DNA of 63,284 bases from a virus (taxonomy: Duplodnaviria > Heunggongvirae > Uroviricota > Caudoviricetes). This document shows positions 3,001 to 15,000 of the stretch, one piece after another. Each line of letters starts with the position of its first letter. Position 1 is the first letter of the stretch. The stretch lies in the IMG/VR virus record IMGVR_UViG_2877982868_000011. The stretch is one strand, 5' to 3'. Position numbers: made by a program.

Positions 3001-6000
3001 ACTGGCGAATGAAGTGGGCGACTTACATCCCGGGGCATCCTGACGCTAATGATGGGTGGATAATTCCTGGTGCGTCGTGGAAACCGTCACACTGGATGCC
3101 GCTACCAGAACCGCCGCAGGAGGTGAACTGATGGAAAATGAAGGCGATAATATCATCACACTGGTGCAGCCAAAGCGCGATGAAGAGAAGCTGCTGAACA
3201 TTACAGTAACTGGCAGAAAAAACTACACACAACAGAGCTGTAAGCATCGGGCCATTGAGGTTCATGAACAGGATCACGTTATCCTGTGCTTGCAGTGCGG
3301 ATGTGTTGTGGACCCTTTTCTGTATGTTCTGCGGTGTGCGAACGATGGTGAGGCTGTGGTGAGAGAGATTAGACAGCTTCATAACAGACACGATCAGCTC
3401 CGAGAATCTGTTGCCAGCCTCGAGCGTGAAGAAAAGAACACCAAAGCACGGTTGCGGGCAGCAAGAACTGCAATACTGTATGCGGAAAATGACCTTAAAA
3501 ATATTGAGCAGAAGGTGAATCAATGACCTGGCCTGAAGCATTCGCAAATGTAGGAACAGTAATGGCGGTGGTGCTGGTTGTGTATTCGATTTGTCGCTGG
3601 AGATAAAAACGGTTTGCGGGAAAAGGAGAGTTAAGTAGAATTGCTGCGGGTGCTTGAGGCTATCTGCCTCGGGCATGAACACCAACGGCAGATAGAGAAA
3701 AGCCCCAGTTAACATTACGCGTCCGGCAAGACGCTTAACATTAATCTGAGGCTCAATCCATGCTGAACACATGTAGGTTAGCCTCTTACGTGCCGAAAGG
3801 CAAGGAGAAGCAGGCTATGAAGCAGCAAAAGGCGATGTTAATCGCCCTGATCGTCATCTGTTTAACCGTCATAGTGACGGCACTGGTAACGAGGAAAGAC
3901 CTCTGCGAGGTGCGAATCCGAACCGGTCAGACGGAGGTCGCTGTCTTCGTAGACTACGAATCTGAGAAGTAAGAGACCAAGCGGGGGAGTAATCTCCCGC
4001 CACCTCTGATGTGTCAGGCATCCTCAACGCACCCGCGCTTTACCATACTGAAAATGCTGTTTGAATGTTCATCTCTGAAAGAGGACTATGAATGAAAAAG
4101 GTATTGATTGCAGCACTTATTTCTGGTGTGTCTTTTGGCGCTTTTGCACAGCAGGGCGGTTTCCAAGGGCCTGAAGCAGAGCGTTCAACAGTAGCGCAGG
4201 CAAAAGAACTGAAGGATGATGCATGGGTTATCCTTGAAGGGAGCATCGTTAAAAAAGTGGGTGATGAACGTTATGAGTTTCGTGACAATAGCGGGACAAT
4301 TGTCACGGATATCGATGACAGCATATGGGCCGGTCAGAATGTTTCTCCGAAAGACAAAGTAAGAATTGAGGGTGAAATTGATAAAGACCTGAGCAGTGTT
4401 GAAGTGGATGTAAAGGCACTGAAATTATTAAAGTAACCGTCCCAGCTTGCTAAGCCCGTCTTACTGACGGGTTTTCTGTTTGTTATCACAGTATTTTTCA
4501 ACAAAACACCGAATCTTATCCGGTGCGCTGTAAAACCCCGTCCTTCAGGGCGTGGAGGATGTCAAATGGCGTATATTTGGATATAAGAAAGCCATCCAAT
4601 ACTGGCTGAAAAAACTCCTCATCGATATCATCGTGGGCCTGAATAGTTCCATCCGCAATTCTGATTGCCGGTATTGTTCCCCGGCGATAAGGGGTGAACA
4701 TCATCCCGGTTACATCAGATCGCCTAATAACATATCAAGATTATTTTGCTCATAAATGCTATTCGCCATTACCGTTGCTGCTTCAGCTTAATGAAACGCA
4801 TAGATCCGCCATGCTTTTTCAGCAAATACGCTGCCATTTGCGCAACTTTTTCTTCATTAAACATAAATCGGCTCTCTGTATCACATGAAATGCTCTTCTG
4901 ACTATATGTTAATAGCTCCGGTTATTACAGGTCAATGAGTGTTTATTTCTTAATCAGCCCCGCACTTCCGTACGGGGCCATTTCTGTTAATCCACTCCCA
5001 CTTTTTTGTTGTACTCGCGGTTAAACCGATCCACGGCAATTTTCATATCCCGCTCTACCGATTTCACCATCGCCGACTGTTGCGCCAGACTGAGAGTACT
5101 GTCGGCGTAAATGGCATCACGCTGTTTACGCAAATCCTTCAGTCTCTTCCGGGTATCCTGCATAAGCCCGTTCATCGACAATTTTCCGTTGTTCTCGTCA
5201 ATGAACGCCGTTCTTTCTGCACCGGTCAGACTCTTCAGCTCTGCGTGATACTGCGCAATCTCTGTCATCCGGTCGTACATCTTCTGCTGGTCTGCATACG
5301 GCATCACCTCCCCCGAAATTTTCCCCAGGAAGGGCACCTGCTGTTCCGGTATATCAATACCATTCAGCGATTTCACCGCCGCATCCGTGGTTTTGGAAAT
5401 GAAGCGCCCTGTCCCTCCGGAGATATAGTCAATCCAGAATTTCAGCGATTCCGGTGTGATATCCACCGCGCCGGGACGGTACTGGCTGCCACCTGAGAAC
5501 GCATTCAGCCAGGATGCAAACGCCTTGTACGCTTCTGGCGTTGAACGTCTTCCCAGCTGGCTGTCAGGTTTTGGTGTACCAAACGGCATGTTCTCCTGGT
5601 AAATCTGCGCCCCCATGAAGTTTTCATTCATGGCAAGGTTCGCAAACGGACGCAGAATGGTCGGCGCTGCATTTTTCAGCAATGCCCCGGACAGTGTTTC
5701 CGACGTCTCACTGCCAATCGGGCTGAATGCACCAAGCACACCACCAACAACATTACCGGCAGCACGGGACGCCGTCAGGTCACCCGCCGCCACACCTTCA
5801 GCAGTATGCCCGAGCAGGAAGAAAACGTTGTACCCGTAAGGCAGAGGAATACTCCAGTACTCTCCGGCCTTGCCCCCGAACACCGATTTCATAATGACGA
5901 GGTTACGCTCTTTCACATGAGACGGCACCTTGTCATACCAGTTAACCCCGTCATCATCCTCACCCGCCACGCTGCGGTTAAGCGAGCCAAGCAGATAACC

Positions 6001-12000: not shown

Positions 12001-15000
12001 AACAGATTCTGGTTGCGGGGCTGCGTCGTCCTGCTGCACGGTTTCAGCATCACGCATGGCGGTTTCTTCTGCGGCCTGACGTCTGCCACGATATCCGGCA
12101 ACCGCACCGAATGGAGCCCCCATCGCAGCACCAAAGGCTGCACCTTCGATCGTTGCGTCAGCCACGCCCTCCCACGGTGACACACCCATTCCGGCGGTCT
12201 CACGCAATGCCGTGTTTTCCTGATAGCGTGAATAGCCGCCCTGCGCCGCATTAATCGCCCCCTGTTCCGTGGCATTTCTGACAATGCCGCTTTTAACGGT
12301 CTTCGCTGTGCCTCGTGTCACCAGATTAAACAGTTGTGCGTCACCCAGTTTTGCCGCCATGGCATTCACAGCCAGCAATTCAGGATCGGTTGCCAGCTGC
12401 GCGCGCACCTCATCGGCAACACGCTCTTTTGCCAGATCCATTTTCTGGCGATCAGTAAGCTGTGCGTGCTGCGGGTCGGCGTCAATGGACAAAAACGTCT
12501 GCTGAAATTTCGGTGACTGCGCCAGCTCAGAGTAATCAGCATTAAGAACAGCATCTGCTGCCGCCATTGCACTCTGCCCCTGTGCACTTACAGTGGAATG
12601 GGTGATCAGGCCCGCCTGGAATAAATCCGGCATTTTTTTATCGACAGCTTCTGCTGCCAGTGCCGTGGCTCTTTCCGGCTGCATCCCTGCCGCGATGTAT
12701 TTTTTCTCCAGCCCGGCGGTCAGCATTTTTCGCAGTGTGACATCACCCACCTTTCTAGCCACACCGCCAGCAACCATATCAGGTACAAGCGCACCAATCA
12801 GGTTTACACCCTTCGCCACCCAGACCGCAGAATCATTATAGCCTTCGGTCATCGGCGTATTCAGCGCACGAACTGCACCCGGCGACATCTTACCGGTCAG
12901 CCATTCATCAGTGGCTTTGGCACCATCACTGACAGCCTTACCGGTTGCCTTCAGACCTTTACCGACAATATCAGTAACCGCGTTTTTGCCATCAGGCAGG
13001 GTATCGATGACCTCATCAGCCCCCCTGCTGCCACCGGCAAAAATATCCTGCACAGTTGCGACACCCGGCAGCCCCATACGGCTGAACTCATTTAAAATAC
13101 GCGCCCCTGTTTTTACCGGGCTCTGAATCATCGCATCACCGAGTCCACGGGCCATTTCCCCTGTTCCCCGGACGGACTGGGCGAAACCTTTACCCATTGT
13201 TGGCAATACATCGCCCAGGCTGAACGACGTACTGTTATCCTTCCAGCGATTCGGATCAGAGAAAAATGCTTCATAGCTGTCAGTTTCGCCGGGTTGCTGA
13301 ATGTTCAGGCTGTTACGATTCTGGTTACCGAGTTGCGCCTCAGGACGCTGTTCCTCTGAATAGGCCATACAGACTCCATAAAAAAACCCGGCACAATGGC
13401 CGGGCATCAGGAAATGGTATTAATGGAATATCGTGAATTACTGGGCGTAATTCTGTTTCAGTCCACGGATAAACTGAGATGCAGATGAAGCACTTTCATC
13501 TCTGGCCTGTTCCCCCCTGGCCTTTTGAATACGGAGAAAATTCGCATACCCGTTCTCCAGCAATTTCTGATTCTGAGGTTCCAGCATTTCAGGCTGACGG
13601 GCCGCTACATTTCTGGCAAATGACAGCTTGTCAGGATCATCTCCCGCCCAGTTGATAACCTGTTGCTGAAGTTTTTGTTGCTGAATTTTCTGTTGATGCG
13701 GTTGTGAACCAGTCGCAGCATAATATTCATCCACCGCAGCCTGAGCATTACCGCCATTCTTGATCGCGTCCGCCGCTACGTTGCTGGCCCCCTTCTGAAG
13801 CTCTTTCAGAGAAAGTCCCTGCTGCTTCGGCATAAAATAACCATAATTTTTCGATATCTCTGCAAATTTGCTGCGATCCCTGACCTGAGCGATAGCCTTA
13901 TCAACGGGTATCGCCAGCACGGTTTGATCATCAGGGTGCGCACTGCCGTATTCTGTTACAGGTTTATGCGCGGTGGAGCCATCGCTGTATGTGAGATCAA
14001 GGCCAATAAGTACGTACCCTTCCTGCTGCGCTGGTACGATACTGCCAATCCTGGCCTCTTTTATCGTTTTGTCCCCGGTTGAATCAGGCATGCCAATACG
14101 CTGTTGTAGTTCCGGGGCAAACACGCCGGAAAGCACATCGAGATTTTCCGGGGTATTCAGCGAATCGATCGCCATGTCCGGCTTATCACCAAAGATTTTT
14201 TGCAGGTTGATCACGGCCTGACCCGCTTTCGCTGCATAGCCTTCGTTTGACATAAGAATTAATGGATGTCCCTTTGGCAGCTGCCCGAACAGACGCGTTG
14301 CAGCCTCCTGATCGCCAGCCTCAATTGCTTTTCCAAGCGCTTCCATTAGTGGCTGGCTATGGGCAATCATATCGTTATACTCAAGCCGTCGCTGGTTGTA
14401 TTTCTGCAACTGGAGTCGCTGCTGCTCCATACCCAGTGACGCATTCCGGTAATTCTGGTTAGCGTTAAACTCCCTCTCCTTCAGTGCATAATTACGGTCG
14501 TCAACTTTGGCTCTGTAATCAAAGTTCCGCTGATCAACGTTTTTATTATGTTCAAACTGAGACTGCGCAAACTCAAAATCGCGCTCGTTATTTTTCTGTT
14601 GCCGGGCAAGCTGTGCTTCACGCAGACCAAGCTCCTTACGACGGGTCATTGCCTGGTCAACGGTGCTGAATCCGGCAAGTAACCCCTGTGCAAATCCGCT
14701 CATTCACCACTCCTTAAAACAAAGAACCAGCAATGCCGCCAATTACTGCTCCAGCAACAGCACCAACAGGACCACCAACGGATGCGCCAATAGCCGCCCC
14801 CGTACCAATGCCCGTACCGATATTCTGCTTGTTCTGCGCTTTCTGTTGCGCCGCCATCTGTTTGTTCGCAGCCTCAATTTCTTCACGTCGTCTGTCTGCG
14901 TCACTTATTCCCTGTAATGCCTCACGCCGCGACTGATTTGCAATATCCAGTAAACCGTATCCCATATTGCCCCCTTACGCTGCCACCAGTTGGCCGCCAA

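Follow-up and report, generated by a model that had tools for sequence, protein, structure and literature searches.

What does the giant gene near the end of a Shiga toxin (Stx) phage late operon contribute to infection? Short-tailed Stx phages spread Shiga toxin genes among E. coli, and the stretch of DNA analyzed here (the window: 63,284 nucleotides, IMG/VR virus record IMGVR_UViG_2877982868_000011) is a 933W/Sp5-type Stx2 prophage. On its minus strand, at 4987..13368, lies one essential gene of 2793 codons plus stop, equal to about 13% of the genome, which encodes a protein (308 kDa, isoelectric point 8.6, no cysteine) that is highly abundant in virion mass spectrometry. This giant protein is an obvious candidate for a role in DNA passage across the envelope after BamA binding. 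We hold with moderate confidence that it is a virion-packaged "polyvalent" ejection protein, in which N- and C-terminal modules would form a chassis for entering the head, docking at the tail and crossing the envelope, and the region between them would supply self-processing peptidases and a ribonuclease (RNase)-like effector. The protein is real and its polyvalent reading is supported, but neither is new: earlier papers and the domain labels of RefSeq contain both. We add (i) the arrangement of N- and C-terminal modules around swappable cargo; (ii) the lack of a PDB relative for the C-terminal block; and (iii) the total absence of cysteine.

The giant protein is essential for infectivity and abundant in virions

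The giant gene is 100% identical to positions 49025-57445 of phage 933W (NC_000924; L0134/ST933Wp72) and corresponds to Sp5 ORF80 (ECs1242) and to phi24B gp47, whose product is near-identical; the 8.4-kb stretch that holds it has matches in 186 Stx-phage records at 90-100% identity. As these are the same protein, its size, its essentiality, the tail-defective but DNA-filled particles formed without it, and its presence in virions carry over to the window. An Sp5 prophage deleted for ORF80 (dORF80) excises, packages DNA and makes normal-looking heads (Mondal 2016, PMC5155283). It gives neither plaques nor lysogens, a defect that is complemented in trans, and its particles are not bound by an anti-tail-fiber antibody (PMC5155283). 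ORF79, which encodes the 421-amino acid (aa) neighbor, is also essential, and its deletion behaves like dORF80 (PMC5155283). This essential morphogenetic role was missing from an earlier note on the window, which had been made from the sequence alone.

The same note had suggested that the protein is packaged in virions, and the phi24B data bear this out. In purified phi24B virions, gp47 accounts for 10,962 peptide-spectrum matches, second only to the capsid protein, and it peaks in the top gel slices (bioRxiv 10.64898/2026.04.10.717836). The virions also hold gp48 (421 aa), gp50 (homolog of a 148-aa product of the window) and gp51 (homolog of a 218-aa product); none of these four proteins appears in the cryo-electron microscopy model, and for gp47 an ejection role is proposed (bioRxiv 10.64898/2026.04.10.717836). 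In the literature on further virion proteomics of 933W-type phages, we found no main-text statement on the giant protein. Taken together, the giant protein is essential for infectivity and not for DNA packaging, and it is abundant in virions and absent from the ordered capsid and tail density.

The main rival explanation arises from the same genetics. Mondal 2016 read the protein as primarily structural, that is, as a tail-assembly scaffold, plug or tape-measure-like organizer, whose enzyme-like domains would be secondary or vestigial. In its favor, the dORF80 heads are DNA-filled and normal-looking, yet show no anti-tail-fiber binding, and the structural operon has the gene at its end, beside another tail-assembly gene, ORF79. 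We nevertheless consider it unlikely, in part because so abundant a protein is absent from the resolved phi24B tail and portal. Further evidence on both sides is given below with the domains and modules that it concerns.

Domain architecture of the giant protein

The open reading frame (ORF) that begins at the first in-frame ATG spans 4987..13407 on the minus strand and encodes 2806 aa. Residue numbers below refer to this reading unless stated otherwise; for the 2793-aa protein, 13 should be subtracted. All segments are on the minus strand. An N-terminal module (aa 14-460, 12028..13368; phrog_37568) has at its end a glycine zipper, GAAFGAAMGAPFGAVAGY (aa 419-446, window 12070-12153). It is followed by a low-complexity, probably disordered linker (aa 461-1063, 10219..12027) that is rich in E/Q/R and P/G and in which no family was detected. 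Long low-complexity linkers had been noticed before, and we confirmed them: roughly aa 441-480 and 721-840 contain at most 15% hydrophobic residues and are E/Q/R/P/G-rich. Next come LPD5 (aa 1064-1213, 9769..10218; Pfam E 6.5e-45), metallopeptidase domain 1 (aa 1195-1453, 9049..9825) of the CLCA_X or phage-type metallopeptidase (MPTase) kind, and metallopeptidase domain 2 (aa 1470-1700, 8308..9000), which has no Pfam model. MuF_C, a domain with the predicted RNase fold called PBECR, occupies aa 1763-1852 (7852..8121; Pfam E 1.3e-17), and the remainder is a C-terminal block (aa 1861-2806, 4990..7827) that is mostly helical, with one small beta domain, a terminal coiled-coil region and, within it, the Pfam domain LPD38 (aa 2489-2694, 5326-5943).

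Pfam searches on seven sub-segments, with E values up to 10, returned only the four known domains (LPD5, LPD1, MuF_C and LPD38), along with noise below threshold from glycine-zipper and Peptidase_M76 models. In RefSeq the product is called "LPD5 domain-containing protein". These four are signature domains of phage-type polyvalent proteins, and both HExxH motifs lie in conserved zincin-type domains, so the polyvalent reading that had been proposed for this gene holds. The protein combines several unrelated domains, predicted enzymes among them, with a position among late virion genes; packaging is supported by the phi24B proteomics, and we infer delivery into the cell. A Kyte-Doolittle scan of the giant protein found no transmembrane helix above threshold. 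With regard to a structural role, searches of Pfam, PHROG and NCBIfam gave no tape-measure or tail-fiber match, and the conventional identity against which the earlier reading was to be checked did not appear. We also rejected the suggestion of an AAA+ ATPase (COG1483; Mondal 2016), as there is no Walker A motif ([AG]xxxxGK[ST]) anywhere in the protein and no match to an ATPase family.

The MuF_C match (PF18819) scores 64.2 bits against a cut-off of 27.6. Iyer 2017 (PMC5512222) defines MuF_C as PBECR, an RNase-like domain of the BECR fold. In this region K1758, H1765, D1781, H1814 and S1829 are conserved in 23 homologs, with H1765 at 96% and S1829 at 100%. We therefore predict that MuF_C is a BECR-fold RNase-like domain here as well, with H1765 and S1829 as candidate catalytic residues.

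An RNase-like domain in a polyvalent protein also lends itself to another explanation. Iyer 2017 (PMC5512222) linked the polyvalent class to counter-defense and proposed that PBECR RNases act against host or CRISPR RNAs, and a PHROG match labeled "DarB-like antirestriction" is present in the giant protein. The earlier note had pointed to counter-defense. If the giant protein were mainly a carrier of anti-defense effectors, its injected enzymes would disable restriction, CRISPR or other immunity, and it would be dispensable on hosts that lack such defenses. We regard this as improbable, because the phage needs the gene even on E. coli K-12 MG1655. The DarB-like match is confined to the C-terminal chassis: positions 4260-4538 of phrog_10089 align only with aa 2364-2694, and Pfam finds no methyltransferase or helicase. 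By its domains, the giant protein is therefore not a P1 DarB-like antirestriction protein. PADLOC returned no match, and we identified no known anti-restriction or anti-defense domain in the giant protein.

Two HExxH motifs mark metallopeptidase domains of different families

The two HExxH motifs reported in the earlier note are real and invariant in homologs, with positions off by 1-2 nt (9506-9520 and 8706-8720): HEWFH is encoded at 9505-9519 and HEIIH at 8704-8718. From the composition of the protein, 0.037 such motifs would be expected by chance. Both fall outside the four Pfam matches.

HEWFH belongs to domain 1, which matches the NCBIfam model CLCA_X (NF041907) with E 9e-44 over model positions 3-245 of 250; its 149.8 bits lie below the curated whole-protein cut-off of 260. 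Pfam LPD1 (aa 1374-1453) is the C-terminal third of this domain. CLCA_X proteins are predicted zincins related to the self-cleaving CLCA protease and are common in giant proteins of phages and plasmids (PMC3650047). H1276, H1297, E1298, W1299, H1301 and D1304 are invariant in 26 homologs. Iyer 2017 (PMC5512222) describes a phage-type MPTase with a histidine in strand 2 and an aspartate three residues after HExxH, and domain 1 fits this description, because H1276 and HEWFHSLD match the described His and Asp. At the level of sequence, domain 1 is clearly homologous to CLCA_X, but it falls short of NCBI's own threshold for that subfamily.

HEIIH belongs to domain 2, for which we found 383 relatives in all, almost all inside proteins of 1000-6000 aa. 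H1564, E1565, H1568 and E1620 (8548-8550) are invariant in 60 aligned relatives and also in 24 diverse sequences, and Y1609 is 98% conserved. HExxH and the putative third ligand, E1620, both lie in predicted helices. The structure model of domain 2 is confident and has the mixed beta sheet and active-site helices of a zincin fold, and its best PDB matches are zincins of the lethal-factor/Pro-Pro-endopeptidase type. We predict that domain 2 is a gluzincin-type metallopeptidase with a fold like that of anthrax lethal factor and Pro-Pro endopeptidases (PPEP). On these alignments, each HExxH motif marks a genuine and probably active metallopeptidase domain, and the two domains are of different families. 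This conservation bears on the structural rival: even in distant relatives, all catalytic residues of both metallopeptidases and of PBECR are strictly conserved, a finding that speaks against vestigial domains.

Podophages must breach the cell wall, and T7 gp16 carries a wall hydrolase. The giant protein has no lysozyme or transglycosylase, and some relatives carry SLT or LT_GEWL cargo, which leaves such a role unfilled here. The phi24B preprint suggests that metallopeptidases fill it, as cell-wall enzymes that would cut the peptide stems of peptidoglycan for a conduit across the periplasm (bioRxiv 10.64898/2026.04.10.717836). We give this suggestion little credence. The HExxH domains are similar to endopeptidases that act on proteins (lethal factor, Pro-Pro endopeptidase, MATCAP, CLCA) and not to wall peptidases of the LAS, M23 or M15 groups, and the peptidase of the preprint is MuF_C, which it labels a metallopeptidase (bioRxiv 10.64898/2026.04.10.717836). 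That label appears to be a slip, because Iyer 2017 defines MuF_C as a BECR RNase-like domain and the real HExxH domains lie elsewhere, at 8308-9000 and 9049-9825.

Conserved terminal modules surround a variable middle

We surveyed the architecture of about 150 giants that share metallopeptidase domain 2. The N-terminal module is found at the N-terminus of 39 of these relatives, and the C-terminal block is contiguous and at the extreme C-terminus in about 18; the region between the two varies. In tblastn searches, the C-terminal block was found in giants of Vibrio, Ralstonia and Burkholderia phages of roughly 57-63 kb, and part of it in Bacillus phages of 40 kb. Some relatives have it fused to other cargo, such as an SLT transglycosylase, a helicase or a methylase ("DarB-like"). 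The pairing of a 420-510-aa gene with a giant gene at the end of the operon recurs in Vibrio phage D66 and Ralstonia phage Gervaise.

A structure model of the C-terminal block (946 residues; pLDDT 73, pTM 0.71) matches the C-terminal chunks of many viral LPD38 proteins in BFVD with template modeling (TM) scores of 0.6-0.83, including giants with LT_GEWL, RelA/SpoT or methylase cargo. In the PDB it has no fold relative beyond generic helical bundles, and it has no profile similarity to the C-terminus of the N4 virion RNA polymerase. These comparisons indicate that conserved N- and C-terminal modules surround swappable cargo, which is a contribution of the present analysis. Conserved ends around a variable middle would also be seen in a tail-assembly protein, and we count this pattern in favor of the structural rival.

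We note a second pattern of variation, within the Stx phages themselves. There the giant gene has a mosaic make-up, with block-wise differences of 5-18% over the N-terminal ~1400 residues (ArgO145 and 13E027; window 9200-13368) and ~99-100% identity from metallopeptidase 2 to the C-terminus (window 4990-9000).

The giant protein lacks cysteine

None of the 2793 residues is cysteine, compared with a mean of 0.76% in the other late proteins (P about 6e-10). Of 111 related giants with 1500 aa or more, 99 likewise lack cysteine, as do the products of the four genes just upstream (421, 83, 148 and 218 aa; 870 aa in total). Such a lack would fit unfolded passage through a narrow tail channel and through the oxidizing periplasm.

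A model for the giant protein as an ejection protein

We propose that the giant protein works in two parts. The N-terminal module, with its glycine zipper, and the C-terminal block of ~950 residues would constitute the chassis, which would (i) bring the protein into the head; (ii) dock it at the portal/tail axis; and (iii) after receptor triggering, exit through the tail and bridge the cell envelope. Docking at the portal/tail axis would explain why the tail is incomplete when the giant protein is missing. The variable middle would be the cargo, consisting of LPD5, the BECR-fold RNase-like domain and two zinc metallopeptidases of different kinds, whose active sites are intact. The peptidases would most likely cleave the polyprotein itself, or else co-ejected or host proteins, so that parts are released or activated, and RNA inside the freshly infected cell would be the target of the RNase-like domain. 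Relatives that share the terminal modules and carry different enzymes as cargo are present in many podophages of Vibrio, Ralstonia and Burkholderia and among hundreds of giants from metagenomes, so that the mechanism would extend beyond Stx phages.

Four points weigh against this model. First, we infer each of its functional steps, namely ejection, proteolysis, RNase activity and the host target. Second, the structure models were built on shallow alignments of 12-24 sequences. Third, a protein with only a structural role in the tail could also account for the tail-less phenotype of dORF80. Fourth, the gel-slice counts suggest that the virion form is mostly very large, which makes extensive processing before packaging unlikely.

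A bolder version of the model is possible, and we offer it tentatively. The giant protein may be a cysteine-free, self-processing polyprotein that is threaded through the short tail together with the four upstream products, which are cysteine-free too; after passage of the envelope, the two zincins would cut it and free the RNase and other cargo to condition the cell for lysis or lysogeny. The C-terminal block would then be a new and widespread podophage ejection machine, unrelated to those of T7, P22 and N4.

The start codon and an upstream terminator

An intrinsic-terminator-like hairpin, GCCCGGCcauuguGCCGGGU (13405-13386, minus strand), has a 7-bp stem with six G-C pairs and a 6-nt loop, and is followed by a run of seven T (13386-13380); its folding free energy (dG) is -13.6 kcal/mol. 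Hairpin and T-run lie between the stop codon of the 421-aa gene (13438-13440) and the start of the giant gene, and fill the intergenic gap of roughly 30 nt. The T-run ends 11 nt before an ATG at 13368-13366, which is preceded by a Shine-Dalgarno sequence, GGAG (13377-13374, minus strand), at a spacing of 5 nt. The start given in RefSeq NC_000924, an ATG at 13407-13405, reaches into the first base of the hairpin stem, at its 5' end.

We aligned this junction with those of EH2085, 13E027 and ArgO145, which are only 80-90% identical to it. The hairpin, the T-run, GGAG and the downstream ATG are all kept, and the RefSeq start codon is ATA or absent in the related phages. Moreover, phrog_616, a model of 2793 positions, begins at residue 14 of the 2806-aa reading. 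Because the downstream signals are conserved, the upstream ATG is not, and phrog_616 starts at residue 14, the comparison indicates that the true product is 2793 aa and that the RefSeq start is 13 codons too far upstream. The spurious N-terminal extension of 13 residues contains two cysteines. The earlier note had thus chosen a better start than RefSeq for this genuine ORF, in agreement with the size given by Mondal 2016, and had left its strand (minus) unstated.

The terminator that had been noted before the start is also real. Taken over all terminator-like matches, the region shows no strong enrichment (23, against 14.4 +/- 3.9 in shuffles). For this particular hairpin, we take the GC-rich stem followed by U7, the intergenic position and the conservation across phages, including a compensatory change of a G-C to an A-U pair in ArgO145, as the signature of a genuine Rho-independent terminator. 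At least three intrinsic-terminator-like sites lie within the distal late operon, this one included; the other two are strong hairpins just after lom (16981-16963, minus strand) and before the 218-aa gene (16122-16103, minus strand). Their dG values are -11.3 and -15.0 kcal/mol, respectively.

Q-modified RNA polymerase, which reads the late operons of lambdoid phages, ignores intrinsic terminators. The late operon that contains the giant gene is Q-dependent and holds at least two further terminators, and for these reasons we find doubtful the proposal that read-through at the hairpin is attenuated. The hairpin probably serves to insulate the gene, in the lysogen, from transcripts that are stray or not antiterminated, and not to hold back late expression. 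The two additional hairpins suggest moron-type insulation inside a Q-antiterminated transcript.

A terminator before the giant gene is not universal, because it is present in Vibrio phage D66 and absent in Ralstonia phage Gervaise. By direct reading of the sequence, D66, whose C-terminal block is 41% identical, has its own hairpin and T-run between an ORF79-like gene and a giant gene of 3066 aa (L005 4405-4479), with a promoter-like TTCACC-17-TATGAT after the hairpin. Before the Gervaise giant gene (L006 2170-2228), we found neither a hairpin nor a promoter-like site.

The late operon and neighboring genes

The late operon is on the minus strand and extends down from about 42 kb, a region in which three phage tRNAs and the stx-linked sRNAs also lie. 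The giant gene had been described as ending it, and this is nearly so: it is the last large gene and the second-to-last overall, followed on the same strand by a last small ORF of 62 aa (4516-4704; phrog_1925, no known domain). A terminator-like hairpin downstream of both (4526-4506, minus strand) closes the late transcription unit. If gene order holds, the 62-aa ORF is Sp5 ORF81, whose deletion reportedly raised the numbers of plaques and lysogens several-fold (PMC5155283).

Upstream, four small virion-type genes with Gly-rich segments had been proposed. We count five genes between lom and the giant gene (133, 218, 148, 83 and 421 aa), among which only the 218-aa product, with a Gly-rich C-terminal end, and the 83-aa product, with a Gly-zipper, have such ends. 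The gene that adjoins the giant gene is that of 421 aa (13438..14703, minus strand; Sp5 ORF79, phi24B gp48), whose product has no cysteine and no known domain; the three small cysteine-free genes of 83, 148 and 218 aa follow at 14714..16080 on the minus strand. The 83-aa product (14714-14965, minus strand), annotated as "bacteriocin", is a short protein with a C-terminal Gly-zipper_YMGG match (E 9e-6). Its phi24B homolog was detected at a low level in virions and was dismissed by the authors as a contaminant.

Rfam and ARAGORN searches of the window also found an element resembling the small RNA (sRNA) sRNA-Xcc1 (938-1026), the sok antitoxin RNA of hok/sok (3648-3822), the sRNAs AsxR and STnc100 beside stx2 (39403-39662), three phage tRNAs (Arg-tct, Arg-tcg and Met; 41068-41319), and the lambda cIII thermoregulator (53778-53836). 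All of these RNA elements and tRNAs are known for 933W-type prophages.

Comparison with known systems

One close class is that of the polyvalent proteins of Iyer 2017, with which the giant protein shares a large multi-domain build, a late-gene context, zincin MPTase hubs, PBECR, LPD domains and the phage-only LPD38. It differs from them in that the Pfam copy we searched holds no model for its second MPTase. Iyer 2017 defines LPD38 as ~190 aa, whereas the conserved unit here is a contiguous block of ~950 aa. Metallopeptidase domain 1 matches the CLCA_X model over its whole length and carries the HExxH...D signature. The CLCA_X family, a relative of the self-cleaving metalloprotease at the N-terminus of CLCA (Lenart 2013), includes Bbp10 of Bordetella phage BPP-1 (PMC3650047). 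Unlike in CLCA_X proteins, this domain is embedded in a far larger protein; the protease activity of CLCA_X is itself only predicted.

DarB and DdrB of phage P1 are likewise large, packaged in the head and delivered with the DNA, and DdrB carries an MPTase and is processed. Their methyltransferase, helicase and ParB domains are absent from the giant protein, and the PHROG label "DarB-like" derives from relatives that share only the C-terminal block. The virion RNA polymerase of N4 (gp50, 3500 aa) is another giant that a podophage packages and ejects before its DNA, and it has a lethal-factor-like MPTase; we found no homology in sequence or fold that would make the giant protein a member of its family.

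The internal head proteins gp14, gp15 and gp16 of T7, and gp7, gp16 and gp20 of P22, exit through the short tail, form a trans-envelope channel and are essential for infectivity. We found no similarity in sequence or fold between these ejection proteins and the giant protein, which is one polypeptide where T7 and P22 use three, has no transglycosylase, and differs in that its loss also abolishes tail-fiber labeling. The working principle that we propose for it is nevertheless the same as theirs.

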